The translations under genes were made by a program, and so were the position numbers. Below the pieces are notes generated by a model. It had not been told where the DNA came from. It searched no databases and saw only the letters and a list, made by a program, of their open reading frames with translations. A stretch of 64,000 nt of DNA from assembly GCA_016939365.1 (NCBI GenBank), contig JAFGHD010000130.1, positions 2,707 through 66,706 of the forward strand, in the 5' to 3' direction. Shown piece after piece: positions 29,992 to 63,880 of this stretch. Numbering within the stretch: position 1 is the stretch's first letter; each line of letters opens with the position of its first letter. Origin of the DNA: Bacteroidales bacterium. GTDB taxonomy: Bacteria; Bacteroidota; Bacteroidia; Bacteroidales; JAFGHD01.

Positions 29992-30046
29992 CCTACGGGG
30001 TAATGGGCCTATTTGCTATCTTTGTTTGGAATCAAATCAAATCATT

Positions 30047-33000
30047 ATGAAATATCTTTTTTGGATATCATTGATGGTTATCCCGGGACCCTTGCTGTCC
30101 CAGCATTCGCTTCCCGGCATTTCTTCAGCCGGGGAACCCGAAATCCGGACCATTATCCCCGGAGAAGGGGAGCATCTGGATGACCTGCTCCCTTTATTCC
30201 AGCCTGACGTGCTGCAGACCCATGTGGACCCGGGCGTTGCCCCGGAGGGCGATTACATGTTCAATTCATCCTTCACCCATGACGGACAGCGGATTCTTCT
30301 GGCCAACGGCGGCACGGACAATGTGACCGTCTTCGACTGGGCTACAAGGACCGCTATCACCCAAATCGAGGTCGGGGATTACCCCTGCGATGTGGCTGTT
30401 ACTGACCAATATGCCGTTATCCCGTGCATTTTCGGCAATGAAGTGTACGTGATCGACCTGTCGGATTATTCGGTCGCCGGAGTGTTTCAGACCGGTGAAC
30501 AGCCGGCGGTGGCCGAAGTGAGCAGTGACGGGCACTTCGCATATGTCTCATGTGATATCGACGATGTCTGTGAAGTGATCGATCTGGTTGCCATGACACA
30601 TACCCTGACCATCCAGAATTTCCCAATCAGCCTGCTCACCTTTTCCTGGATATCCACCGGAGGAAGGAATTCCTTCCAATTCTCCAGGTTCTGTGTCACA
30701 CCCGATGGCAACCACCTGGTGGTGGGTGACGGGGTCGATGCCGTTAAGTTTTTCAATACTGCTAATGGAAACGTGGATTTCAACATCCCCGGCATTCCTT
30801 CCTGCTGGGTGGTCAATCTGTCAGGGAACGGCAATACCGTCGCGGCGATCAGCAAGGTCAGCAACCAGGTTGCGGTGTACCGGATCGATCTGGCCTCGCA
30901 CACCATCACCGGATCCGTCACCGTGGGGGGCTATTCCCTGTCATATTATGATATCGGCGTCAATGCCGACGGCAGCAAGGCATACATCGGTATCAGCAAC
31001 AACTCGAGCGCCCTGGTTCGTTTTAACACTTCCGACTACAAGATATTTACACAGGCATACACTCCCTTCTGGATCGGCACATCGCCCGACCATCAGTATG
31101 TGATCCATGGCCAGAACCGTTTTACCGTGGTCGACTTCGTGTCGGAACAGATGCTGGGCCAGTACTGGGGGATCAGTCAATCCTTCGGATGTGTTTCACC
31201 GGTGGCATTCGATGTAATCGGATATGACCCTTTGCGTTATGAGGGCCTCTATTTCTACGACTGCAATAACGTCAACAGCGTGCAATATCTGGGCAATGAG
31301 CTGAGCGGACTGCCACCGGAAGGAGATACCCCCTACCGGATTGCTGTTTCTCCAAATGGATCAAAGGCGGTAATATCCTGCTCATTATCGGAAAGTGTAT
31401 CGATCATTGATCTGCAGGACTATTCGGTCGACACCATCATTGACCTGGGTGAAAAATGCGATGCCGTTGGGATTACCCATGATTCGCACTGGGCCGTCAT
31501 GGGTGGCTATGATCTCAATACCATCAAGATCATCGACCTGACCACCAATGAATTCGTTGCCTCCATTGTCACCGGCCAACGGCCGATGATGGTGGCCATC
31601 AGTCCGGATGACCAGTATGCATATATCGGGAACCTGAAGGGTAATTCAGTATCCATTGTGAAGCTGGAGGGTGCAGCCAGCTATGAAGTGGCCGAGATCC
31701 CGACCGGCGTGATCGGACTGGTTTGGGCGGCATACGGCGTCAGGAGCAGTGTGGAGGTCGATCCTACGGGTCAGTATGTGCTCGTGGCGGCCAGCTTCGA
31801 CGACGTGGTCCAGGTGATCGATGTCAGCACCCATCAGATCGTGGCCACCCTGCCTGCCGGAGACTTCCCGCTGAAGATCGCCTTCAATGCCACCGGCGAG
31901 TATGCCGCGGTGACCAATTACTTCTCCAACAACTTCACCCTGATCCATGTGGCCGGTGCATCTTCCTCAGTGGTCGGTACATTCTCCTCCGGGGGTACCA
32001 AACCGCTGCGGCTGGCCTACAATTCCGCTGACGACGAATTCGGCATCCTGAATTACGATTCGAAAACACTGGCAAGGGTAAATCCCCAGACCGGAAGCAT
32101 ATTGGGCATGGTATCCCTGTCAACGTACGGAAATCCAATCCAGATCCTTTACGACCAGTTGGGGAAGTACATCGTCCTTACCCTGGGTGACAGCAATACC
32201 CCTGGATTCCTGGTCCATGACGGAATGGCCGTTTCACTGCCGGCCTCGCCGACCTATTTCGATTACTGCCCTGCAGAACAAACCGCTGCCGTGAGCATTC
32301 CGGGCCCCGACAACGTCTCCGTGATCGAATACGGACTGTGGCCGCATGCGAATTTCTCAGCCGGTACCACATGGGTACAGACAGGCGGCAGTGTTGATTT
32401 CACAGACATTTCCGGCAACAATCCAACCCAGTGGCACTGGGAGTTTGAAGGCGGGACACCTCCCGTATCCATCGCCCAGAATCCGGCCGTCGTTTACAAT
32501 ACCGCCGGTACCTTTGATGTAAAGCTGGTCGTCAGCAATGCCTATGGAAGCGACTCCATCATCCGGCAGGATTACATCACAGTGGAACAAGCGGGTATCA
32601 GCCTCGATATCAAACTCTTTCTCGAAGGGCCTTTCAACGGTTCAGAAATGGATGCCTTTCTGAACATTTTTGGTTATATGCCTTTGAATCAACCCTATAA
32701 TACTGATCCGTGGAATTACGCCGGCACAGAGTCCGTCATGACGATTCCCTCCCCCGATGTGGTTGACTGGATACTGATGGAGTTGCGGGAAACACCCGGA
32801 GATGTATCCACGGCTACCTCCCAGACCATGATCGCCAGGAAGGCTGCCTTTCTGATGAAGGATGGAAGCATCCGGGGACTGGATGGCAGCAGCCTGGTGG
32901 GTTTCAACCTGCAGATCACTCAGAACCTTTTTATTGTCCTGTGGCACCGGAACCATCTGGGAGTCATTTCATCTGCTCCTCTCACAGCAGCTGCAGGGAT

Positions 33001-33274
33001 CTACAGCTATGATTTTTCCATTGCGGCGGATCAGGCTTACGGAGGGGTGCTGGCCCACAAGGAGATCGCTCCGGGAATATGGGGTGAAACAGGCGGGGAT
33101 GCAGATGCCAGCGGATTGGTCGGGACACAGGACAAAGTGGATATGTGGATGCCCCAGGCAGGCAGCTCGGGCTACCTGAGCGCCGACTGGAACATGAACG
33201 GAATGGTGGATCATGTGGACAAGGTGGGCGTCTGGAGCGTCAATGCCGGATCGGGTTGCCAGGTACCCTATTGA
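30047..33274 (+). CDS. Very large secreted YVTN-type beta-propeller repeat protein with PKD domain and dockerin-like C-terminus
   Basis: Start at ATG 30047 (MKYLFWISLMVIPGPLLSQ). There are many roughly 40-aa units of the type P..vavspDG..ayV.n....vsViD (e.g. PYRIAVSPNGSKAVISCSLSESVSIIDL, PMMVAISPDDQYAYIGNLKGNSVSIV). The PKD module spans about 32350-32590. The last 60 aa carry two D-x-D/N-x-x-G-x-V-x-x-x-D loops (GDADASGLVGTQD, DWNMNGMVDHVD). Confidence 0.7.
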   Translation: MKYLFWISLMVIPGPLLSQHSLPGISSAGEPEIRTIIPGEGEHLDDLLPLFQPDVLQTHVDPGVAPEGDYMFNSSFTHDGQRILLANGGTDNVTVFDWATRTAITQIEVGDYPCDVAVTDQYAVIPCIFGNEVYVIDLSDYSVAGVFQTGEQPAVAEVSSDGHFAYVSCDIDDVCEVIDLVAMTHTLTIQNFPISLLTFSWISTGGRNSFQFSRFCVTPDGNHLVVGDGVDAVKFFNTANGNVDFNIPGIPSCWVVNLSGNGNTVAAISKVSNQVAVYRIDLASHTITGSVTVGGYSLSYYDIGVNADGSKAYIGISNNSSALVRFNTSDYKIFTQAYTPFWIGTSPDHQYVIHGQNRFTVVDFVSEQMLGQYWGISQSFGCVSPVAFDVIGYDPLRYEGLYFYDCNNVNSVQYLGNELSGLPPEGDTPYRIAVSPNGSKAVISCSLSESVSIIDLQDYSVDTIIDLGEKCDAVGITHDSHWAVMGGYDLNTIKIIDLTTNEFVASIVTGQRPMMVAISPDDQYAYIGNLKGNSVSIVKLEGAASYEVAEIPTGVIGLVWAAYGVRSSVEVDPTGQYVLVAASFDDVVQVIDVSTHQIVATLPAGDFPLKIAFNATGEYAAVTNYFSNNFTLIHVAGASSSVVGTFSSGGTKPLRLAYNSADDEFGILNYDSKTLARVNPQTGSILGMVSLSTYGNPIQILYDQLGKYIVLTLGDSNTPGFLVHDGMAVSLPASPTYFDYCPAEQTAAVSIPGPDNVSVIEYGLWPHANFSAGTTWVQTGGSVDFTDISGNNPTQWHWEFEGGTPPVSIAQNPAVVYNTAGTFDVKLVVSNAYGSDSIIRQDYITVEQAGISLDIKLFLEGPFNGSEMDAFLNIFGYMPLNQPYNTDPWNYAGTESVMTIPSPDVVDWILMELRETPGDVSTATSQTMIARKAAFLMKDGSIRGLDGSSLVGFNLQITQNLFIVLWHRNHLGVISSAPLTAAAGIYSYDFSIAADQAYGGVLAHKEIAPGIWGETGGDADASGLVGTQDKVDMWMPQAGSSGYLSADWNMNGMVDHVDKVGVWSVNAGSGCQVPY

Positions 33275-34371: not shown

Positions 34372-34989
34372 ATGGCTATTCAAATAGAGCACCACAACCG
34401 ATGTCCCTGGCCGGGAAATGATCTCCTGATGCAGCAATACCATGATACGGAATGGGGCGTGCCGGTCCACGACGACCTGAAGCATTTCGAATTCATGGTG
34501 CTGGATGCCTTCCAGGCCGGACTGAGCTGGGCCATCATCCTCCGCAAGCGCGAAAGCTTCAGAAAAGCACTGGATGATTTCGATTTCAGGAAAATTGCCG
34601 TTTATGATGCCGGAAAGGTGGCATCGTTACTGCAGGATCCGGGTATCATCCGCAACAGGCTCAAGATAGAAGCAACCATCAATAATGCCCGGGCATTTCT
34701 CAAAATCATTGACGAATCCGGATCGTTTGATCACTATATCTGGCAGTTCACCAGCGGCCGGCCGCTCGTCAACCGCTGGAAAGAGCTGAAGCAGATCCCG
34801 GCAAGCGCTCCTGAGTCCGATGCCATGAGCCGCGACCTGAAGAAGCGGGGATTCCGGTTCGTGGGCAGCACCATATGCTATGCCTACATGCAGGCTGCCG
34901 GGCTGGTGAACGACCACCTCATAAGCTGCTTCAGGCATCAGGAGATCATGGGTGCATATCACCCGTTTCATCCAGGTGCAGGGGGATGA
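34372..34989 (+). CDS. tag: DNA-3-methyladenine glycosylase I
   Basis: RCPWPGNDLLMQQYHDTEWGVPVHDD, FQAGLSWAIILRKRE and GFRFVGSTICYAYMQAAGLVNDHLISC align with E. coli Tag, including the Cys/His zinc ligands. The last 14 codons overlap the convergent ATPase gene. Confidence 0.85.
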   Translation: MAIQIEHHNRCPWPGNDLLMQQYHDTEWGVPVHDDLKHFEFMVLDAFQAGLSWAIILRKRESFRKALDDFDFRKIAVYDAGKVASLLQDPGIIRNRLKIEATINNARAFLKIIDESGSFDHYIWQFTSGRPLVNRWKELKQIPASAPESDAMSRDLKKRGFRFVGSTICYAYMQAAGLVNDHLISCFRHQEIMGAYHPFHPGAGG

Positions 34990-36787
34990 CCTGCCCGAAA
35001 AGGTTCCGTTCCTCCTTGCTCAGGTCAAATATGGCATCCTTCTCATTCAGCTTCAGATACCTGATCCCCACATCAAGGTATTTCAGGAGAAGATGGGCCT
35101 CCTGTCGCTCAACGAACAGCTTGTTAAAAATATCCCTGATCCTGATAAACCGGATTGTTTCTATTCTGTGGCTCAGGCGTAACAGTGATAAAACAGCCAG
35201 AGTAAAAACACCATAAATACCGGCCGGATCTTCATCCTCCTGCAAGACACCGGTCAGCTGCACAATATAATCATCCACGATCCCCACAGGGATTTCCTCC
35301 AAAACAGTCGCAAGGGAATGACTGAATAATATCCTGCACTCTTCATTTTTCAGGTACACAAGATTTTCTCTTATATGGATCAGCACCTGAGGATAATTAC
35401 CCACTTTGATTTCATGCCCAATGAGACTATCTAAATCCTGACATTTGGCTTCATCATCAGTTTTGTTTTCAATATCCGCTCTCAAGCCATCAGGTCTCTT
35501 TCTGTAGTTCTCATACTCAATTCCTATATCCTCAGAAATATCAGGCTTATCGGGATCGGCTGATCCGGTAAAAGGCCCCTTCGGGTAGCGAATATCCGTT
35601 TCCCGGAACAGATCCTTCCGGGCCAGATACCTGTAAAATATGACGAGAAAATCGATGAAGACCGGGATAATAGCCTCTTGACTTTCCCCGATTTCGTAAT
35701 AAAAGCGCATCAGGGGCTCTGTGACTTCATAATATCGCTCCCGTCCCCGTTTAAAGGCATTGATGTACCCTAGCTTCTGCAATTCCGATAATTGCTTGGA
35801 AAGGGAACGCTGCTCTATGAAGCAATTGTATGAGATTGAATTACCGCTTTGCGGAGTACGGCTCAGGCTCAGGTACTGGATGATCTTCTGCTGCATGGGT
35901 GACAGCGATTTCAGCAGGCTCTCATAATAGGGTTTCAGCTTGTCGATACTCTTTAGGAAAGATCCTGACAATTCGGATTTATATTCAGCCCGGAGGAAGT
36001 CGAAAAAAAGCACTACCAACCTGTGGTTTCCCCGGGTGAAGTCGTGGATGGCCCGGATCTTGTCCCGCGCTTCATCAGTACCCAGATATTCTTCAAGTTC
36101 CGGGTATCCCTCGGCTTTTGCCAGTGCCATCATCAGCCGGACCGTCTCTTCCAGGGTCAGATTTTTCAGATGGGTAATGCTGAAGAAGTTCATAAAAGGC
36201 ATATCCTCCCTTCGCAGGTCGTGGAAAAGCGCCTGGCTGGTGGCGATGAACGAAACATTACCGTTGGTCTGAATGAAATCACGCAGTTTCGCCTGGCCTT
36301 CGCGCCTGAGGTCATGGAACACCTGGTTTAGATTTTCTATGAGTATCAGCAGTCTTTTTTTTTCGAGGAAACGCAAGAGGATACTGCATGCCATCTCGTT
36401 CCAGTTTTGGGCAGGCGATGATTTCAGCAGGTCGAGCTCCCTTTCCAGTGATTGCAGTCTTTCCTTATCACGGTCCCACCTTTGCAAGGCAGCAAAGACC
36501 CGGTTCATGAAATCGACAAACGAGGCAAGGCCCACCTCATCTTCAACCATATAAGCGATTTCATAATGGTTCATCACTTCCGGATTGTCTGTAAACCGGT
36601 TATACAGCACCCTCAGCAGATGTGTTTTTCCGCTGCCCCTGGGGCCAACGATCAGGTTCTGATACAATTTCCCTGTCTTCACCGAGTCGATGATCATTTT
36701 TTCAATGGCATCGGCCAGCACCTTCCTGCCGGTCAGGGTCATCTCCAGCTTTTCCGGATTCTCGATCCTGGATTGAAATATATACAT
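34946..36787 (-). CDS. ORC/Cdc6-like P-loop NTPase with winged-helix domain and an uncharacterised ~230-aa C-terminal domain
   Basis: 613 aa. Motifs in order: LTGRKVL...LIVGPRGSGKTHLLRVL (Walker A), RLLILIENL (Walker-B-like strand), FIATSQ (sensor-1-like) and TRGNHRL (sensor-2-like Arg). The wHTH is LSPMQQKIIQYLS...LSKQLSELQKLGYINAFKRGRERYYEVT. The rest has no motif I recognise. Low GC, 10 nt downstream of the previous gene. Confidence 0.7.
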   Translation of the reverse strand: MYIFQSRIENPEKLEMTLTGRKVLADAIEKMIIDSVKTGKLYQNLIVGPRGSGKTHLLRVLYNRFTDNPEVMNHYEIAYMVEDEVGLASFVDFMNRVFAALQRWDRDKERLQSLERELDLLKSSPAQNWNEMACSILLRFLEKKRLLILIENLNQVFHDLRREGQAKLRDFIQTNGNVSFIATSQALFHDLRREDMPFMNFFSITHLKNLTLEETVRLMMALAKAEGYPELEEYLGTDEARDKIRAIHDFTRGNHRLVVLFFDFLRAEYKSELSGSFLKSIDKLKPYYESLLKSLSPMQQKIIQYLSLSRTPQSGNSISYNCFIEQRSLSKQLSELQKLGYINAFKRGRERYYEVTEPLMRFYYEIGESQEAIIPVFIDFLVIFYRYLARKDLFRETDIRYPKGPFTGSADPDKPDISEDIGIEYENYRKRPDGLRADIENKTDDEAKCQDLDSLIGHEIKVGNYPQVLIHIRENLVYLKNEECRILFSHSLATVLEEIPVGIVDDYIVQLTGVLQEDEDPAGIYGVFTLAVLSLLRLSHRIETIRFIRIRDIFNKLFVERQEAHLLLKYLDVGIRYLKLNEKDAIFDLSKEERNLFGQVIPLHLDETGDMHP

Positions 36788-36797
36788 GAGAAGTTTA

Positions 36798-37997
36798 TTA
36801 TTTATCTGATTGTGATCGGTGTTGTTTTCTCCCTGGCCTTGACACCGGCTGTCCCAGATTTATCTGCCACCAACGTCTTACCAGCGGATACCTGAACATA
36901 AAGGTTCTCATACCATTTTCCTCCTTACGGAATAAATACAGGTCATTGTACAATGACCTCAGGGCTGACTTTGCATTGTTCTCGTCGACTTCACTATATG
37001 ACTTGAGTTCATTGATGACACCATCTTCAGAAACATAATCTTCGTGTCTGCTTAGAACACTCAATATATCGAGTGATAACTGCCTGATATCTTCCTCATA
37101 GTATGTTTTTATTCTCGATTCCAGATGGCTGAATTCACTGTTGTTCAGGGGCGCGGAAATCAAATCATGAATCATTTTGTCAATATCCTGAATTGTAATG
37201 GTCTCCAACCCACTGATCATTGTCTGAATTTTTAGACGGTCAATGAAAAATGGCAGCCGGTTTGTCTGCTGAATGAGGTGATTGAACACATCCTCTTTGT
37301 TATCAAAAACGTAATCAGTCCCAAATAAATACCGGCACAATTCCAGGGCATCTTCCGGGTTCATTTCAAGCACCGGATACTTGATCATATTGTTCATCGG
37401 CTCCCCGGCATAGTTATGTTTTTTCTGGAGCTTTTCAAGAACGATATTCATCCCGATCGATCCGCAGAAAATAAACCTTAGTTTGCCGCTGTCTTCATAC
37501 ATTTCCCTGATCTTGCGCAGTGTGTCGAGCAATTCGGTGGCCTGATCCGCCAGTTCGTAAGTGGTGATGAAATTCCACAGCATCATGGGAAATTCATCTA
37601 TCATGATCAGTATCCTTTCTGATTGTGCCTGGACGGCATCCTCCATGATCTTCTCAAGGATCATTTTCCAGTGTGACCTGAATGAGGGCATTTTGAACTG
37701 GCCGAAATCCTTTCCACCTATGAACTTTTCATAGTATTCCCTTGCCCTTCTGAATCGATCTTCAGAAACACCCCTCTCCAGTAATTGACGGTACAATCCA
37801 TCCACAAATTCCTGGGGATCCCTCGCTCCTTCAACGAAATGAAGAATTGGCTTCCAACCTTCTCTCGGAGATTGGGTCATTTTCTTGAGTATGGATGTTT
37901 TTCCCATCCTCCTGAGTGAAGTGATGACCACACTCTGCCGCTCGAGCACATCCCATATTGCCCTGATCTCCTTCTCCCTGCCAATGATTTTTTCCAT
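36798..37997 (-). CDS. Arch_ATPase (PF01637)-like P-loop NTPase with C-terminal winged-helix-like region
   Basis: 399 aa. IIGREKEIRAIWDVLERQSVVITSLRRMGKTSILKK is a G-R-E lead-in plus Walker A. ILIMIDEF is Walker B and RFIFCGS is a sensor-1-like strand. The C-terminal DLYLFRKEENGMRTFMFRYPLVRRWWQI resembles the DUF234-type wHTH tail. Low GC. Confidence 0.7.
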   Translation of the reverse strand: MEKIIGREKEIRAIWDVLERQSVVITSLRRMGKTSILKKMTQSPREGWKPILHFVEGARDPQEFVDGLYRQLLERGVSEDRFRRAREYYEKFIGGKDFGQFKMPSFRSHWKMILEKIMEDAVQAQSERILIMIDEFPMMLWNFITTYELADQATELLDTLRKIREMYEDSGKLRFIFCGSIGMNIVLEKLQKKHNYAGEPMNNMIKYPVLEMNPEDALELCRYLFGTDYVFDNKEDVFNHLIQQTNRLPFFIDRLKIQTMISGLETITIQDIDKMIHDLISAPLNNSEFSHLESRIKTYYEEDIRQLSLDILSVLSRHEDYVSEDGVINELKSYSEVDENNAKSALRSLYNDLYLFRKEENGMRTFMFRYPLVRRWWQINLGQPVSRPGRKQHRSQSDK

Positions 37998-38035
37998 AAC
38001 ATTAAGTATATAATTAATGAACGGATTTCAATTCT

Positions 38036-38095
38036 GACGTACGTCGTTTTTGTCTTACGTTATAAATGTCGTACGTTTAATTTGACGCAAAAGTA
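38036..38095 (-). promoter_or_regulatory. Candidate promoter and repeat/operator cluster upstream of the ATPase pair
   Basis: The minus strand reads TACTTTTG (plus 38088-38095), matching TAnnTTTG. Downstream of it lie GTCGTACGT (38068-38076), GTCTTACGT (38052-38060) and the perfect palindrome GACGTACGTC (38036-38045). Their start positions are spaced 16 nt apart. Confidence 0.35.
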
Positions 38096-38155
38096 CAACA
38101 CGAAATAACAAAAAGCAAGAACCCTGACAAAAATTTTCGGAAAGATCGTCGATGA

Positions 38156-40201
38156 TCACTCCATCATCATGAGTTTGCGACAACGGGAACAGATACCTCT
38201 TGCTATACAGATCAGACAGACCTGCGGTCCGATACCCTGTAACGGAATGATGATGTCGCTGCCCTGCGCAGCATTGAGCTCCTTCCTTACCAGCGCCCTG
38301 CTATCCATCGAATAAATAGTTAGCACAAATCTGCCGTTCACAGATCCTGAAGGGACCACCAAAGAACGGTTCCGGACATAAAATCTGGCAGGGTCATCCT
38401 CCTCGTCAAACAGCGGATTGATCCCGGTAACCGGGTGGACCTGGATGCCTTTCTTCCAGGTGAGCGTATCCGAGGCCATTATATTGTTCACAATGAGCGT
38501 CACCTCGAACAGCCCCGGTTCCGGGTAGATAACGACAGGGTTTTGCTCCATGGAATATTCCGGCAGGCCGCCCTCGAAGTGCCATGACCAGCCGGTCACG
38601 GTTCCGGCTGACAGGTCGGTGAAATGCACCGGCTGGTTCACCTGGGGCTGAAAATTGTCTGCCGTGAACAGGGCGGCAAGGTACCATTCAGGGAAGCGGA
38701 ACACGCCGGTATGTTGCACATTGTATTGCAGCACAGGGAGAAACGCTTTTTCCGGCCGGTAAGGAATGTTTGTGGTCCACAGGTGTATGGAGGTAGTCTG
38801 ATGAGCGGCGTCTATTCCTCCTCCGGTAAGGTCAAGCGTGCCGTCGGCATTGAAGTCACCTGTAGCCGGATTCATGAAAAAGGTCGATCCCTGCACCGCC
38901 AGCGGCCAGCCGTTCAGTGGTGTTCCGTCATGGTTGTATGCATGATACCATCCATCCTCCGAATTGTCATCCCAGACAAGCTCCGGGAACCTGTCGCCGT
39001 CAAGGTCTGCAACGATGATCTGACAATTCACCGGCCAGATATACGGCGATGGCCAGCCGGAAAGGTATGTCCCGTCGGCCTCCCAAACATATATATGACA
39101 CCACGGTATGGTGGAGGCCATCTGGTCGCCGGAAGCGATCTCCGGATCGCCGTCCATGTCGAAGTCGGCCACAGCTACCGGCGCATAGACCCAGTTAGAG
39201 GTAATTTTCGGCCATCCGGGAAAGGCAGTGCCGTCATTCCGGATCACATGGATCATACCGTATCCCGAGTTATTGGAATGGTCGCCGGCGATGATCTCAC
39301 GGCACCCGTCATCATCCAGGTCGGCCAGCACGGGTGTGGAGTAGGAAAAGACCCTGTTGCTGCCGGGAGTGTAAGGGAATCCTGACAGCAGGTTTCCCTG
39401 CAGGTCGAAGGCATATATGCTGAGGTAGGATTCGGCTACGATCTCGGGCACAGAGTCTCCCGTGATATCACCCACCGCTGCCCCGGAGCCCGGGACATGG
39501 TCAAGATGCTGCGGCCAACCCGTCATGATGGATCCATCTCCCTGGTATACAAAAACTTTCCCTTCCGGCCAGGATCGCTCCGCCAGGATGATCTCCAATG
39601 CCGGATCCGCATCCAGGTTGCAGAGTACCGCTGTCCTGGCAGCACCTCCCCAGAGGGTCACAGGAAAACCGTTCACGGGCGTTCCGTCCCGTTCCAGCGC
39701 TACCAGGATCCCTTCGTTGCCCGTTCCGCTTAGCCGGGTGCCGACCACTATCTCCCCGATGCCATCGCTATCGATATCTCCGAACGAAGGGGCTCCATCA
39801 GCTCCGAACTGCAATGGCACCGGCCAGCCGGATACATCTGATCCGTCACAATTCCAGGCATAAATGCTTTCACCGATGACATACACCACTTCCAGATCAG
39901 GATCATCATCCAGCTGGCAGGCGATGCCGCCCCGCTGGGATAATCCCTCACGGGTCTGCGGCCAGTATGGTAAAAGAGTGATAGAATCGACAGGCGGCCT
40001 GATTGGCTTATTTTTCAGCGCATCGGAATGGATCAGCACATAGCCGGCTACATCTGCCGCATAGCGGGCCTGCCGGGGGAGCGCCGGATCATCTTTGTGC
40101 ATGACCACACCCTGACCATATACCAACGAAAGGGCATTGATCAATAAGAGTATGATAGGATATAATGCAGAATGATAAAAGAGCCTGCAGGAAAGTTTCA
40201 T
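38156..40201 (-). CDS. FG-GAP/VCBS beta-propeller protein with PKD domain and (degenerate) T9SS C-terminal domain
   Basis: Start at Met 40201 (MKLSCRLFYHSALYPIILLLINALSLVYGQG), forming an ATGA overlap with the upstream paralog. There are seven D-x-D-x-D-G-x-x-E loops (GDIDSDGIGEIVV, ADLDDDGCREIIA, ADFDMDGDPEIAS, ADLDGDRFPELVW, GDFNADGTLDL and others), each preceded by x-G-W/F-P. The PKD module spans about 38430-38675. Confidence 0.7.
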   Translation of the reverse strand: MKLSCRLFYHSALYPIILLLINALSLVYGQGVVMHKDDPALPRQARYAADVAGYVLIHSDALKNKPIRPPVDSITLLPYWPQTREGLSQRGGIACQLDDDPDLEVVYVIGESIYAWNCDGSDVSGWPVPLQFGADGAPSFGDIDSDGIGEIVVGTRLSGTGNEGILVALERDGTPVNGFPVTLWGGAARTAVLCNLDADPALEIILAERSWPEGKVFVYQGDGSIMTGWPQHLDHVPGSGAAVGDITGDSVPEIVAESYLSIYAFDLQGNLLSGFPYTPGSNRVFSYSTPVLADLDDDGCREIIAGDHSNNSGYGMIHVIRNDGTAFPGWPKITSNWVYAPVAVADFDMDGDPEIASGDQMASTIPWCHIYVWEADGTYLSGWPSPYIWPVNCQIIVADLDGDRFPELVWDDNSEDGWYHAYNHDGTPLNGWPLAVQGSTFFMNPATGDFNADGTLDLTGGGIDAAHQTTSIHLWTTNIPYRPEKAFLPVLQYNVQHTGVFRFPEWYLAALFTADNFQPQVNQPVHFTDLSAGTVTGWSWHFEGGLPEYSMEQNPVVIYPEPGLFEVTLIVNNIMASDTLTWKKGIQVHPVTGINPLFDEEDDPARFYVRNRSLVVPSGSVNGRFVLTIYSMDSRALVRKELNAAQGSDIIIPLQGIGPQVCLICIARGICSRCRKLMMME

Positions 40202-42231
40202 CGCCTGATCATGATCTTTTGATGCATCTGTAAATCCCCTGATACGATACTGAGAAGGTACACCCCTTCCGGGATGCCTGATACATCCCACAAATGCCTG
40301 ATACTGCTGCCATCCCGGTCAATAATGCTGCCGGCAACGCAGCGTCCTGAAAAATCAAACAATGAAACGACGGATTGACCTTCTGCTCCCGGCAGCTCGA
40401 GTGTCAGCATGTTGCCGGAGGGATTGGGGTATACAGCAGGAGCATCGGCATGCATACAATCTGTTCCGGTACATGGATCCACCGAAATGTAACCGGTCTT
40501 GGTGAGGGTGTCGGAAGCATAGCCCTCATGGACGATCAGTGTCACATCAAAGACGCCGGCCTGGGAATATGTCACCTGGGGATGCTGAAGCTGTGATACA
40601 GAAGGTGTTCCGCCCGGGAAGCTCCATTCCCATAAGGAGATGTTTCCTGAGGAGATATCGGTGAACTGCACCTGACCTCCGGTGCATATCCATGTGGTAT
40701 CCGCATAGAAATCGGCCTTCAGGTTGTCTTCCGGGTCGCGGTAGACACCGTCATGCGAAGGGCCATATTGCAGCACAGGCAGTATGGCTTCAGCCGGATC
40801 CCATGAGGAGAATCCTCTCCAGAGGTAAATATGGCAGACGGTACTTCCTCCTATTTCAATGCCACCTCCGGAGATATCGAGGATACCGTCCTTATCGATA
40901 TCCGTCACGAAGGGATTCATGAAAAAAGTGCTTCCCTGGACATGGAGGGGCCATCCTTCCGCCGGCGTACCGTCATGGTTATAACCCAGATAGATACCCA
41001 TGCCAGTGTTATCGTCCCAGATCAGTTCGGTCATCCCGTCGCCGTCGACATCGGCCAGGATGATCTGGTTGTTCACGGCCCATATCTGGGATGTGGGCCA
41101 ACCGGGGAGGTAATTGCCCTGGCTGTCCCAGACATGCACTTTGCTGACGGGTGATCCGGAGAGCACCTGGTCGCCTATGGCGACATCCAGCGAGCCGTCG
41201 CCGTCGATATCTCCCACGGCAGGCGGCCCGTAAATCCAGTAGGAGGTATATTTCGGCCATCCGCTGAGGGGTAAGCCGTCGTTCCGGAGCACATGGACGG
41301 CCCCGTTGCCGGATGAGAGGGAGTGGTCGCCGGCAATGATCTCACGGTATCCGTCGGCGTCAAGGTCGGCCAGTACGGGAGAGGAATAGGAGAACACCCG
41401 GTCGTTTCCCGGGGTGAAGGGAAATCCGCTGAGGACCGTTCCGGACACATCAAAAGCATAAATGCTGTAATATGACTCCGCTATGATCTCGGGGATATCA
41501 TCTCCTGTAATATCTCCGACGGCAACGGCGGAGCCGGGTACATAATCTATAGTCTGCGGCCACCCGGGGAAGGCCGTACCATCGCCGCGGTAAATCCCCA
41601 CATAGCCGTTGGGATAGTTGCGTTCTTCAACGATGATCTCCAGAACATCATCATTGTCCAGATCGGCCAGCACCGGGGTCTTGGTGGCTCCGCCGGAAAG
41701 GTATACCGGAAAACCCGCAACGGCTGTCCCATCCTTTTCAAAGGCATTCAGGGCTCCGCTGTTGGCTGTACCTGACGAACGGGTGGAAACCACGATCTCG
41801 CCCTCCCCGTCCCCGTCGATATCGCCAAAAGCCGGTGCACCGTCCGGGTAATAGATGACGTTTTGCGGCCAGCCCGTGACGCAGCTGCCGTCAACATTCC
41901 ATGCATGGACCTTCTGTCCGATGCAATAAACGATCTCTTCATCAGGATCGCTGTCAAGATGGCAGGGTATCCCACCCCTCTCGCTATCTCCGTTTTCAGT
42001 CACCGGCCAGCCGGGGAACAGCTGGAATGTATCTGCAGTGATCCCTGCATCTGCCCTGGCAAACCATGATCCGTCCAACAGGACCTTGCCGTTTACATCC
42101 GCCCGGCGCAACAAATCCAAGGTCCCTTGTATTTCTGTGATGTCCCTGACGGTCTGGGCACTCCCGGCCAGAGCCGATGCCATTAGAAATGGCCACAGCC
42201 ACTTCCTGTAAACATGATGTTTCATGATCAC
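40198..42231 (-). CDS. FG-GAP/VCBS beta-propeller protein with PKD domain and T9SS C-terminal domain
   Basis: 677 aa with a signal peptide (WLWPFLMASALAGSAQT). Same seven-blade pattern (GDIDGDGEGEIVV, ADLDADGYREIIA, GDIDGDGSLDVAI, ADVDGDGMTELIW, TDIDKDGILDI). The PKD module spans about 40480-40720. The T9SS domain is VYPNPSGNMLTLEL...GVYLLSIVSGDLQMHQKIMIRR. Confidence 0.75.
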   Translation of the reverse strand: MIMKHHVYRKWLWPFLMASALAGSAQTVRDITEIQGTLDLLRRADVNGKVLLDGSWFARADAGITADTFQLFPGWPVTENGDSERGGIPCHLDSDPDEEIVYCIGQKVHAWNVDGSCVTGWPQNVIYYPDGAPAFGDIDGDGEGEIVVSTRSSGTANSGALNAFEKDGTAVAGFPVYLSGGATKTPVLADLDNDDVLEIIVEERNYPNGYVGIYRGDGTAFPGWPQTIDYVPGSAVAVGDITGDDIPEIIAESYYSIYAFDVSGTVLSGFPFTPGNDRVFSYSSPVLADLDADGYREIIAGDHSLSSGNGAVHVLRNDGLPLSGWPKYTSYWIYGPPAVGDIDGDGSLDVAIGDQVLSGSPVSKVHVWDSQGNYLPGWPTSQIWAVNNQIILADVDGDGMTELIWDDNTGMGIYLGYNHDGTPAEGWPLHVQGSTFFMNPFVTDIDKDGILDISGGGIEIGGSTVCHIYLWRGFSSWDPAEAILPVLQYGPSHDGVYRDPEDNLKADFYADTTWICTGGQVQFTDISSGNISLWEWSFPGGTPSVSQLQHPQVTYSQAGVFDVTLIVHEGYASDTLTKTGYISVDPCTGTDCMHADAPAVYPNPSGNMLTLELPGAEGQSVVSLFDFSGRCVAGSIIDRDGSSIRHLWDVSGIPEGVYLLSIVSGDLQMHQKIMIRR

Positions 42232-60870: not shown

Positions 60871-61833
60871 TCAGTATAATTCAATTAGCTTCGATTTTTC
60901 AATGATAAGGGCTTTGAACTTTTCTTTCAGGTCGGTGGGCAGGAAACTTTGATCAATAAAACCAGCCCATTCAGGCAGGAGTTTTTTATACTTCATGAAG
61001 ATGTTTTCAATCACTTTATGATTCATAGCGGCCCCTCTCATGGCAATCTGGAAATCATTCCTTGATATTTCCTTCTTCCTGCCGTTTAAATTCAATGCAA
61101 CTTCTTCATCATCTTCTTCCACAACCAATGCTGATGCTACCAGATCGTAGGCAGGACATAAATTGTAATCCGTTCCTGTTTTCAACAAGGAGAAATTCTT
61201 GAGATGCATATCATTATTGCCAGTCAGGAAGCAGAAAAGAACTGTTTCGTAGAAATTGGTCACATCCAGTCCCGGATTGACGCTGAATTTCTTTATCGCC
61301 TTTGCTATTTGTTCGTATGATCCTTTGTATTTGTGCTCTGTAAGTCTCTCCGTCAACTGGCACATGTCTTCCATGTGGAGTTTATTGCCTTTTCCCCGGT
61401 CTATCCGTTTCGTTAAATAGGCCAGCTGACCGCTTTTCATCCTGATTAATGTGTGGTCTACGGTTCTGATCCCGCTTATCCCGGCCAGATGCATTGTCAC
61501 ATCTTCAATCTCGGGCAAATTTCGGTATGTCCCCGCTTGTGGTTTTAATATGTATTCTCCCCACAATCCTACAATTGTGAACCGGTCAGGTAATACCGTA
61601 TCCCTGGTAATGCCAAGAGATAATTTGGGTTGAACCCCGGTTATGGTTTTATGGCTTTTTATGACATATACTGCCAGTTCGGGTATCTGTTCTTCAGTAA
61701 AATTCAACTCCGGAGGAGTTGTTTTCCCGAAAAACTTCCGGCAGCATTTTTCATGATATCCCTGTGACCCGGCTTTTGTTTTCATTTCTTCCGGATCAAT
61801 TACATTGTAGCAGTAGTAACATCTATTGTTCAT
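60871..61833 (-). CDS. HipT-like Ser/Thr kinase toxin (HipA C-terminal kinase core) with N-terminal Cys/His cluster
   Basis: 320 aa. Gly-rich loop TITGVQPKLSL, catalytic loop NNDMHLKNFSLL and Mg-binding PAYDLVAS. N-terminal cluster CYYCYN...x18...HEKCC. Low GC. Confidence 0.8.
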   Translation of the reverse strand: MNNRCYYCYNVIDPEEMKTKAGSQGYHEKCCRKFFGKTTPPELNFTEEQIPELAVYVIKSHKTITGVQPKLSLGITRDTVLPDRFTIVGLWGEYILKPQAGTYRNLPEIEDVTMHLAGISGIRTVDHTLIRMKSGQLAYLTKRIDRGKGNKLHMEDMCQLTERLTEHKYKGSYEQIAKAIKKFSVNPGLDVTNFYETVLFCFLTGNNDMHLKNFSLLKTGTDYNLCPAYDLVASALVVEEDDEEVALNLNGRKKEISRNDFQIAMRGAAMNHKVIENIFMKYKKLLPEWAGFIDQSFLPTDLKEKFKALIIEKSKLIELY

Positions 61834-62152
61834 TATCCTCGTGAGGTTGTACAGATACTGCGCCTATGCAATCGTTACATGTTTTCAGAAGAATACTCAT
61901 CCTGTCTCTGGGATCCAATTTCCAGTTTTTTTGCGCTATATCCAATAACCATCCTTCCGGGATCAGGCCATCAAAAAAGGGAAAAAGTACTTTACTGTGG
62001 TAGGGTTGTCCGGTTAACGGCAGTGTTAAACTTATCGACTCTGCTTCAGGATTTTCCAGATACGACTTTTCATACTGAAAGTAATATCCGTTTTCATCCT
62101 CGGTCAGTACTCCCGCCAAATCGTTGTACATAAATACTTTAGCTCTCTTCAT
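61823..62152 (-). CDS. HipS-like protein (stand-alone HipA N-terminal subdomain)
   Basis: Start taken at Met 62152 (MKRAKVFMYNDLAGVLTEDENGYYFQYEKSY), a typical couple_hipA N-terminus. FFDGLIPEGW motif. Overlaps the kinase start by 11 nt. Confidence 0.75.
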   Translation of the reverse strand: MKRAKVFMYNDLAGVLTEDENGYYFQYEKSYLENPEAESISLTLPLTGQPYHSKVLFPFFDGLIPEGWLLDIAQKNWKLDPRDRMSILLKTCNDCIGAVSVQPHEDNEQ

Positions 62153-62351
62153 CCCGTTCAGTTTTAACCGGGCCAAGTTCATGACCAAACAGGGAAAGCA
62201 CCTGATTCACCTTATCCATCATCAGGGATTGTTTTCCTTGTTCCAGGTCCCGCACAAACCTCAGTCCGACGCCTGCTTTAAACGAAAGGTCTTCTTGTGT
62301 AAGCCCGAGACCCTTACGTTTTTCCTTTACAAATTGACTTAGTTTATTCAT
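62139..62351 (-). CDS. hipB: HipB-like XRE-family HTH regulator
   Basis: 70 aa. FVKEKRKGLGLTQEDLSFKAGVGLRFVRDLEQGK is a Cro/C1-type HTH. First gene of the three-gene operon. Confidence 0.8.
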   Translation of the reverse strand: MNKLSQFVKEKRKGLGLTQEDLSFKAGVGLRFVRDLEQGKQSLMMDKVNQVLSLFGHELGPVKTERDEES

Positions 62352-62960: not shown

Positions 62961-62968
62961 TAAATTTG
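62961..62968 (+). promoter_or_regulatory. Candidate -7 promoter box for the small ORF / AbiEii-like pair
   Basis: TAAATTTG matches TAnnTTTG and lies 20-27 nt upstream of ATG 62988. Confidence 0.35.
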
Positions 62969-62987
62969 AAAATGCATAGGCTGACCA

Positions 62988-63221
62988 ATGAAGACCGACG
63001 GATTTCAGAGGTATATATTCAGCAGTTACTCCAGGGATGCGGATCTGCCCGAAGTGATCATTGCCCGGCAGGTGATATTGTTCGGCGAGTTCGGCGACAT
63101 GATTCTGATGACCAGAAGATTGGATCGTGCACTGATCCAAAGTGTGCTGAACTCACTGAAACAGTCAAACCGGTTCCAGAAAAGGATAAACTTTGTTCAA
63201 AAAGTAATTCTGGACGAATGA
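62988..63221 (+). CDS. Small hypothetical protein, candidate cognate antitoxin
   Basis: 77 aa with a plausible amphipathic/hydrophobic pattern (PEVIIARQVILFGEFGDMILMT...ALIQSVLNSLKQ). Its stop (63219-63221) overlaps the ATG at 63218 of the downstream gene (ATGA coupling). A candidate promoter lies directly upstream. No family recognised. Confidence 0.4.
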   Translation: MKTDGFQRYIFSSYSRDADLPEVIIARQVILFGEFGDMILMTRRLDRALIQSVLNSLKQSNRFQKRINFVQKVILDE

Positions 63222-63880
63222 AGGGCTTTGATCCTGATTACATGCCTGAACCAACGAGGAAGGTTTTCAGAAAGCTCTCCGGACTCCCTTTTATCAGCAC
63301 CTACACACTGGTTGGAGGGACAGCACTGGCCATGCAGATCCGCCACCGGTTATCAGAGGATCTGGATTTCATCCTTGATGGGCAGAAGCTCAGCAGCGCC
63401 TCCCTGAAAAGAAATATGGGCAGGCACTTCCCGGATTTCAGAATTATCAGGGAGGATGAAAGCGACCAGGTAGATTTTGTCATCGACACCATCAGGGTCA
63501 CCTTCTTCTCTTCCGGGGCCGTCATGATACCCTTTGAAGTGAAGCCGCATGCCAGGAGCTATAAGAAGGTCAATATCGCATCACCCGAAATCATTGGTGT
63601 CCTGAAACTTTCGGCCATATCACAAAGAAATACCTTCAGGGATTATTATGACCTGTATATGCTGGCAAAACACCATATCCCCCTGGAGCAACTGATACGG
63701 CAGACAAAAGAGTTGAATCCCGGCCTCTCCTCCATAACCTATTCTGAAACAATGATCTACACGAGGGACTTGGCGGAAGATTCAATCGCAAACCATCTGT
63801 CGCCCGCTGAAACAGTAACCAAAGAAGATATTTCCGGTTTTTTTGTCCGGGAACTGAGAAGGATCAGAGATGTGATTTAA
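63218..63880 (+). CDS. AbiEii/AbiGii-like nucleotidyltransferase toxin family protein
   Basis: Start at ATG 63218 (MKGFDPDYMPEPTRKVF). The Pol-beta-type NTase motif LVGGTALAMQIRHRLSEDLDFIL (G-G-x13-D-L-D) is typical of DUF1814/AbiEii. The track's upstream extension (TTG 62966) encodes Cys/Arg-rich, non-protein-like sequence. Confidence 0.75.
   Translation: MKGFDPDYMPEPTRKVFRKLSGLPFISTYTLVGGTALAMQIRHRLSEDLDFILDGQKLSSASLKRNMGRHFPDFRIIREDESDQVDFVIDTIRVTFFSSGAVMIPFEVKPHARSYKKVNIASPEIIGVLKLSAISQRNTFRDYYDLYMLAKHHIPLEQLIRQTKELNPGLSSITYSETMIYTRDLAEDSIANHLSPAETVTKEDISGFFVRELRRIRDVI

Follow-up and report, generated by a model that had tools for sequence, protein, structure and literature searches.

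What does a pair of nucleoside triphosphatases (NTPases) with winged helices and without a recognizable effector domain do in bacteria? This question is raised by two neighboring minus-strand genes, here called A and B, in a stretch of 64,000 nt from a Bacteroidales bacterium (assembly GCA_016939365.1, contig JAFGHD010000130.1, positions 2,707 to 66,706), referred to as the window. In all domains of life, immunity and signalling depend centrally on STAND/NLR-type switches, which are usually pictured as sensor, switch, and effector within one protein. The widespread A-B module deviates from this picture: the switch is divided between two paralogues, an effector is missing, and a deeply conserved DNA site of the module's own, an array of palindromic units, lies upstream of A. 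Judged from its sequence, the locus appears to be a self-contained three-part module of this operator-like array, A, and B. We read it, with a probability of about one half, as an autoregulated, DNA-anchored sensor switch built from STAND/ORC-like NTPases. An earlier annotation of the window (the original prediction) had singled out the pair as candidate for an undescribed conflict or defence module; the array and its association with A-B were missed there and are new findings.

Both open reading frames (ORFs; A, 399 aa; B, 613 aa) and the gap of 10 nt between them were exactly as predicted when checked against the ORF list of the window. The motifs quoted for them are all present in the translations (IIGREKEI, SLRRMGKTSILKK, and ILIMIDEF in A; GPRGSGKTH, LLILIENL, FIATSQ, and TRGNHRL in B), where they fall on invariant columns. 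For the analysis of linkage, one genome per species was scanned; relatives of A were found in 268 species genomes, and the best 80 loci were used for locus statistics. In 79 of these 80 loci, a B homologue directly follows A on the same strand, and the contig of the 80th stops 133 nt past A. This co-occurrence check thus identified A-B as a conserved pair, and since the homologues are linked in the same order, the two genes are not chance ORFs. The hosts belong to at least ten phyla and are patchily distributed, including Bacteroidota, many filamentous cyanobacteria, Acidobacteriota, Desulfobacterota, and Gammaproteobacteria, and further Melioribacteraceae, Gemmatimonadota, Armatimonadota, Poribacteria, and Binatia. 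Complete genomes with the pair include CP181291.1, NZ_CP137338.1, OY782765.1, and OZ244065.1. The A family comprises 1,011 clusters among 1.84 billion representatives (50% identity; E up to 1e-30). Clustering of 536 flank proteins gave no conserved third gene outside one syntenic genus, Microcoleus, and a third module gene was rejected, the signal being lineage-specific synteny only; across Microcoleus species, the chromosomal site of the pair is constant. We found no description of the A-B pair in Pfam, NCBIfam, PADLOC, Rfam, or the searched literature, which covered PF01637 in connection with defence, DUF234, two-gene systems of the STAND/TPR/winged-helix type, and the motif sequence. The sections of the recent STAND-clade census by Lee et al. 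(2026; PMC13581612) covered here mention no such pair; this census works with a null of 1.5% for association with defence.

The array lies in the 158-nt leader of A. Three 10-nt cores on the minus strand (AACGTACGAC, AACGTAAGAC, and GACGTACGTC) follow each other with a spacing of exactly 16/16; the array core is CGTACG, and the array as a whole has dyad symmetry with 22-nt inverted arms. In the window, the motif matches four times compared to 0.39 matches expected, and none of the matches is away from the array. For comparison of the loci, a refined position weight matrix (PWM) of 16 nt with the consensus TTTGACGTACGATAAA and a threshold of 12 bits was applied to 80 upstream regions (79 loci and the window). 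In the window, the array scored 42.9 bits on the minus and 39.6 bits on the plus strand and contained the sole scoring sites. More than 12 bits were reached in 72/80 upstream regions, which on average have exactly three well-scoring units, with a fourth in some loci; the first unit begins 61–124 nt before the start codon of A. When three repeats at equal distances were strictly required, 19 of 75 loci were positive (0.65 expected), each of them with a period of 16 nt. The association with the pair is exclusive, as no site above 12 bits was found elsewhere in 2.54 Mb of sequence from the loci (sum of both strands) and no second array within 10 kb in any of the 80 loci; the array upstream of A is the top PWM match in 71 of them. 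It was also the top match in three non-training loci fetched via B homologues, two of which are from isolate genomes (Chryseobacterium indologenes and Roseivirga sp. 4D4). It is rare that the core of a cis-element and its 16-bp spacing persist while the proteins drop to ~30% identity, and an array conserved in this way makes sequence-specific DNA binding a probable central property of the module.

We read the array as a protein-binding DNA operator because it is strand-symmetric, its leader has no Rfam match (nothing below E = 4 for 37900-38300), and the sense leader RNA is no more stable than its shuffled versions (z = +0.40), with slightly better folding of the antisense strand. A structured RNA leader was judged unlikely for lack of an Rfam match and of excess stability. 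The same results bear on a broader explanation, in which the array is either such a leader or is bound by some widespread regulator of the hosts, and A and B act elsewhere, e.g., purely on proteins. Base pairing between the palindromic units is indeed conceivable in RNA, in some loci the last unit directly adjoins the ribosome binding site or the start codon, and orphan arrays occur away from A-B; however, the array accompanies the pair and is otherwise absent from the sequence scanned, and we know of no single host regulator common to all these phyla. We regard this explanation as improbable. By eye, the units resemble local promoter elements (TTGACG...TACAAT in cyanobacteria, TAAATTTG in Roseivirga), and the window has a possible promoter box, TACTTTTG, next to the array (Table 1), while a sigma-70 scan near the array gave nothing convincing. 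Promoter-like units and box would fit an operator overlapping the promoter and thereby autorepression. The likelier binder of the array would be B, since the recognition helix of B (QTxSxQ or SKQ), like the array core, has stayed conserved between phyla, with more variation in the A helix. No clean mapping was obtained between the SSQ/SKQ helix types and variants of the array core.

Arrays of this kind were also searched for away from the pair. A metagenome scan with a 37-bit pattern yielded at least 120 matching stretches; among the matches listed, 67 adjoin an A homologue, 3 a B homologue only, and 50 neither. Eight of these 50 are tandem-repeat artefacts; the others include sites close to contig ends as well as true-looking arrays next to unrelated genes. 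Orphan arrays without A or B on the contig are located at L195:1238-1300 (same element as L212), L106:4963, L169:770, L171:1052, L156:2847, L213:1342, and L200:2566; some of these arrays form long, perfect palindromes within GC-rich DNA, and among their neighbors are lepA, lnt, alcohol dehydrogenase, PhyH, and DNA methylase genes. They could represent a regulon, be recognized by a different binder, or reflect an unrelated usage of this sequence motif. The small ORFs next to orphan arrays were considered as YefM-type antitoxins and rejected as they look spurious. In IMG/VR, six viral contigs match the array pattern. Viral arrays of three units with a 16-bp period and a GTAC core are found at L088:7055-7088, L090:5993-6026 (same element as L105), L091:5347-5380 (related to L117 and L139), and L093:4850-4883. 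Those of L088 and L090 adjoin the gene of a RepB-primase/DUF5906 (VapE-like) replication protein of 809–817 aa and could be origin iterons; one viral-contig array directly precedes a 213-aa ORF.

Some loci vary the arrangement of the pair. In Microcoleus and other Oscillatoriales (e.g., L035, L043, L057, L032, and L036), A and B are separated by 150–700 nt compared to ~10–60 nt, and the gap sometimes holds an ORF of 92–140 aa. In Chryseobacterium indologenes (LJOD01000001.1; L214:1088-9292), a co-directional run consists of a TROVE (Ro60-like) gene, a WG-repeat protein gene, two unknowns, A, B, and an RlaP nucleotidyltransferase gene overlapping the end of B; such a run is absent from the other loci. 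Within a divergent GC-rich subfamily, one locus (L189:5830-7429) has a B-like gene (471 aa) directly after the array without an A gene, and in L153, L208, L150, and L152 the A homologue is without the C-terminal part of the winged helix.

For protein A, the Arch_ATPase layout proposed in the original prediction agrees with the fold. The best matches of its AlphaFold model (predicted local distance difference test, pLDDT, 90.6) are the archaeal ATPase_2 proteins 2qen and 2fna, with target-normalised TM-scores of 0.64–0.67 at 15–17% identity, followed by Apaf-1, CED-4, plant NLRs, ORC subunits, and BrxC. On Pfam ATPase_2 (PF01637), A reaches 32.8 bits and thus stays just below the cut-off of 33.2, while the precomputed annotation of the collection lists PF01637. 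Invariant columns are R7 in the hhGRExE-type lead, R29, R30, G32, and K33 in the RRxGKT P-loop (T34 at least 90%), and D134 and E135; also, an LPF motif is conserved. Based on these residues, A is predicted to be able to hydrolyse ATP. Its tail, which had been described as DUF234-like, is a winged helix by structure only and has no match to Pfam DUF234 at E up to 1; it is followed by the invariant W377, with W376 present in at least 90%. One A-family protein, P0277 (932 aa), has an N-terminal fusion region of 547 aa, in which a vWA-like DxSxS motif (VVDESVSM) is seen by eye and Pfam finds nothing. Either a Rosetta-stone link to vWA-type conflict systems or a fusion produced by gene calling could account for this region.

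A profile-profile alignment of A with the N-terminal 370 residues of B covered 317 columns (probability 96%, E 3e-9), and the two proteins are therefore distant paralogues. The top fold match of B residues 1–385 is the Orc1/Cdc6 heterodimer on origin DNA (2qby, Orc1-1/Orc1-3), followed by 2v1u (Orc1/Cdc6), 2fna, 2qen, CED-4, Apaf-1, and the STAND-TPR protein 6mfv. Together with the model (pLDDT 84.0), these matches support the predicted ORC/Cdc6-like NTPase with a MarR/ArsR-like winged helix. In Pfam, AAA_16 gives a generic sub-threshold match of 28.5 bits, and the winged helix is weakly matched by ArsR/SmtB of NCBIfam (residues 299–359, E 9e-5). The models of both A and B match CED-4, Apaf-1, and plant NLRs at probability 1.0 and thus have the nucleotide-binding domain (NBD)-helical-winged-helix core of STAND proteins. 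In the P-loop of B (GxRGxGKTH), G48, R50, G51, G53, K54, T55, and H56 are conserved at 90% or more, and of the hhGRExE lead B has LxGR only (L18 and R21 at least 90%). Residues E151, N152, G253, N254, and R256 are invariant (H255 at least 90%), and S330, K331, and Q332 in the recognition helix nearly so. As E151-N152 stands where A has D-E, the Walker B variant of B is without Asp and without the catalytic Glu, and B is predicted to bind ATP and to hydrolyse it poorly. For an arginine finger (box VII), the segment after sensor 1 was inspected, which has no conserved Arg in A or B; the invariant R161 and R164 of A and R169 of B sit in the helix before strand 4.

The match to Orc1-1/Orc1-3 on origin DNA favors the idea that A and B are replication or partition initiators and that the array is an origin-like site of a cryptic mobile element or a secondary origin, like archaeal orc1/cdc6 genes beside ORB (origin recognition box) repeats. 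A repeat array with A/T-rich spacers directly upstream of an initiator-like gene would suit such a function, as would the viral arrays next to RepB-primase/DUF5906 genes. Yet the pair comes with no integrase, helicase, primase, or partition gene, it stays at one chromosomal site across Microcoleus species, and neither protein has a conserved arginine finger. The fast-evolving TPR tail of B would also be unexpected in an initiator, and the searches gave no A homologue on viral contigs and only distant relatives on plasmids (see below). We consider an initiator function very improbable.

The C-terminal ~230 aa of B had been named as the place of a cryptic effector or sensor. In the model, the NTPase is followed by the winged helix (297–357), a long helix, a disordered stretch (391–441), and a helical-hairpin domain (444–600), which ends in a family-wide KEER motif (R594). 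Most of 117 B homologues share the N-terminal 380 residues and continue with TPR arrays recognizable by Pfam to a total of 700–1,070 aa, while a subset matches B end to end. The tail aligns with the C-terminal part of the TPR-type homologues (e.g., query residues 26–212, E ~5e-8) and shares their terminal motif. Because it corresponds by homology to the final part of the TPR arrays in these longer proteins, the tail is not an enzyme, and a cryptic enzymatic effector in residues 385–613 was ruled out by model and homologues, which indicate a ~50-aa linker plus ~160-aa helical repeats. The sensor part of the earlier proposal stands in that the tail is probably a short TPR-like sensor or scaffold. 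This tail diverges faster than the rest: in the syntenic Microcoleus loci, identity is 94–98% for A, 92–96% for the N-terminal part of B, and 58–85% for the B tail, whose length varies from 192 to 872 aa (a few B genes are cut by contig ends). Over all loci, B is 376–1,262 aa long.

Table 1. Features of the A-B locus and its direct neighbors (positions in the window)
Feature	Position	Strand	Basis and details
tag glycosylase gene (PF03352)	34372-34989	+	Pfam annotation
Gene B	34946-36787	-	ORF list of the window
C-terminal TPR-like helical-repeat domain of B, residues 444-600	34988-35458	-	helical hairpins, pLDDT 85-96
Disordered linker of B, residues ~391-441	35465-35617	-	pLDDT <50; not conserved
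Winged helix of B, residues 297-357	35717-35899	-	model and conservation; recognition helix RSLSKQLSELQ
NTPase module of B, residues 1-295	35903-36787	-	LxGR, P-loop G48-H56, Walker B variant, sensor-1 SQ185, sensor-2-like G253-N254-H255-R256
Gene A, STAND/ATPase_2-like NTPase	36798-37997	-	ORF list of the window; hhGRExE 4-11, P-loop RRMGKT 29-34, Walker B D134-E135, LPFF 248-251
Winged helix of A, residues ~320-370	36888-37040	-	model secondary structure and conservation
Operator-like array, three 16-bp units (38065-38080, 38049-38064, 38033-38048)	38033-38080	.	repeat and PWM
Possible Bacteroidota-type -7 promoter box TACTTTTG (fits TAnnTTTG)	38088-38095	-	consensus-based inference; 8 nt upstream of the array
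FG-GAP/PKD protein gene	38156-40291	-	domain annotation

In the autoregulated switch that we prefer, A and B would form a hetero-oligomeric nucleotide switch that sits on its own operator array via its winged helices, most likely that of B, and represses its own promoter, which the array units overlap or abut. A ligand, probably a protein, would bind to the TPR tail of B and alter nucleotide state and assembly, and hence DNA binding. Regarding the biological role, we lean towards the sensing of invaders, i.e., an NLR-like function; besides immune sensing, ordinary control of transcription in response to a signal is the only other option that we regard as live.

The genomic context of the pair was analyzed with respect to both options. 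The flanking genes are mostly housekeeping genes, e.g., for tRNA synthetases, methylmalonyl-CoA mutase, DNA polymerase A, aconitase, and a photosynthetic reaction-centre protein. Scattered among them are defence-type neighbors (SoFic, AbiE, MADS, Shosta-like, and IetA-like genes and a pAgo system). Pooled over the loci, defence families were matched 177 times in 380 proteins within 5 kb and 59 times in 148 proteins at 5.5–10 kb; by this comparison between flanks, the density close to the pair appears no higher than further away. A search of 2.9 million viral contigs (IMG/VR) gave no A homologue, and plasmids have only distant A relatives of 22–25% identity, which lends no support to phage or plasmid carriage. 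With mostly housekeeping neighbors, no apparent excess of defence genes close to the pair, and no A homologue on viral contigs, the defence role put forward in the original prediction was not demonstrated. Its more specific statements were borne out: the pair has no nuclease, protease, TIR, or helicase partner, and it matches no known defence system in PADLOC. The best PADLOC hits (E 2.9e-4 for B with mad8, in the P-loop region, and 2e-3 for A) are P-loop-level noise, and Pfam, NCBIfam, PADLOC, and the models gave no effector domain (nuclease, protease, TIR, SIR2, etc.) in A or B.

Transcription control without any conflict role would make A-B an ordinary STAND-type transcription factor pair like MalT, AfsR, or GutR, in which a signal from the cell or the environment is perceived by the TPR tail, and the winged helices bind CGTACG arrays both at the promoter of A-B and at those of a regulon. 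Two winged helices, a conserved operator, and the missing effector agree with this, as do the housekeeping-dominated neighborhoods, the search of viral contigs that gave no A homologue, the plasmids with only distant relatives, and the metagenomic arrays of the same type beside lepA, lnt, alcohol dehydrogenase, PhyH, and DNA methylase genes. However, no target operon is conserved beside the pair beyond synteny, and the 80 loci lack a second array within 10 kb. Also, it would be unusual for a metabolite sensor that length and sequence of the tail shift between sister species while the rest is 92–98% identical; the patchy distribution and the low-GC islet in the window likewise speak against such a pair. 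On balance, we consider this explanation possible but somewhat doubtful.

The immune option can be worded more specifically as an effector-less NLR-like pair whose output is assembly on DNA. Here, the B tail would sense an invader protein, and A-B would leave or re-form on the array and then either act on nucleic acid (ORC-like ATP-driven binding or remodelling, e.g., of phage iterons of the same type) or flood the cell with an ATP-consuming complex. We think that this version is unlikely; if true, it would define a new DNA-anchored class of bacterial STAND immunity reaching from Bacteroidota to cyanobacteria. A defence role as such is made plausible by the STAND architecture, the patchy distribution, the low-GC islet in the window, and the fast-diverging sensor tail.

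Several points weigh against the switch and the immune role towards which we lean. The PADLOC search gave no match, the flanks are mostly housekeeping genes, defence neighbors show no apparent gradient, and no A homologue turned up in the viral contigs; the argument for defence is thus one of architecture only. No effector domain is present that would explain the output. The putative operator array could be bound by a host factor, and 50 of the 120 metagenome matches listed have no recognizable A or B neighbor. Finally, the faster divergence of the repeat region can be explained by repeat instability alone.

The locus itself was checked for base composition and neighbors. The three spot G+C counts given earlier (22/60, 24/60, and 34/60) were recounted and are exact. 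The islet has a GC content of 0.45 compared to 0.551 in each flank; since 3.2-kb windows across the whole stretch have a mean of 0.517 (sd 0.030), this dip is only modest. A second low-GC stretch at ~60–64 kb is the minimum of the window (0.438 over 3.2 kb) and has ORFs at 60871-61833(-), 61823-62188(-), and 62966-63880(+). The islet was correctly placed between convergent host genes, as the 3′ ends of the tag and FG-GAP/PKD ORFs face it. The 3′ end of B shares 44 nt (34946-34989) with that of the convergent tag gene, and no terminator-like site was found between the two genes. The exact tag protein is present on just one other contig, where the islet is present, too. Just upstream of the islet, the FG-GAP/PKD ORF and a similar large ORF at 40198-42231(-) lie in tandem, with the two calls overlapping by 94 nt; a further large ORF is located at 30026-33274(+).

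For experiments, the conserved array gives a direct handle, and because cultured carriers exist (the above-mentioned Chryseobacterium indologenes and Roseivirga sp. 4D4), this effector-less STAND pair is directly testable.

How does the module compare with known systems? STAND NTPases are reportedly defined by criteria of Leipe et al. from 2004. From these, a P-loop and an acidic Walker B are present in both proteins, canonical in A and as the E151-N152 variant in B; the hhGRExE motif is found in A (IIGREKEI, R7 invariant), and a C-terminal repeat sensor in the B family (Pfam TPR in most members, a short TPR-like domain in the window), while A has none. Among ATPase_2 (PF01637) proteins, PAB2304 (2qen) and SSO1545 (2fna) resemble A in having the best-matching folds and an RRxGKT P-loop. 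To our knowledge, they have no established function and, unlike A, are not known as obligate partners of a TPR paralogue or in connection with an operator array.

The archaeal Orc1/Cdc6 proteins on ORB repeats share with A-B the AAA+-like core with a C-terminal winged helix, two paralogues, and repeated DNA sites upstream of the gene, and they include the top structural match of B. The GNHR of B resembles sensor-2, with G253, N254, and R256 invariant, and its winged helix is a candidate for DNA binding in view of the conserved array. In contrast to Orc1/Cdc6, A and B have no conserved arginine finger, the Walker B of B is Glu-Asn, B has a TPR tail, and the pair is bacterial, patchy, and without replication genes or replicon context.

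MalT, AfsR/SARP-type regulators, and PH0952 (6mfv, itself among the fold matches of B) likewise combine a nucleotide switch with a TPR-like sensor, and MalT binds repeated promoter boxes. MalT and AfsR are single proteins with a separate LuxR- or SARP-type DNA-binding domain and known regulons, whereas in A-B only the winged helices of the NTPase modules come into question for DNA binding, and the only assured site is the pair's own leader. The likeness to Avs, bNACHT, and NLR/Apaf-1/CED-4 proteins lies in the NBD-helical-winged-helix core, the hhGRExE-type motif of A, the TPR-type C-terminal sensor of the B family as the fastest-diverging part, and the patchy distribution with many filamentous cyanobacteria. 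Different from these proteins, and from Avs also in having no PADLOC match, A-B has no effector domain fused at the N- or C-terminus and consists of two paralogous NTPases instead of one polypeptide, together with a dedicated operator-like DNA array.

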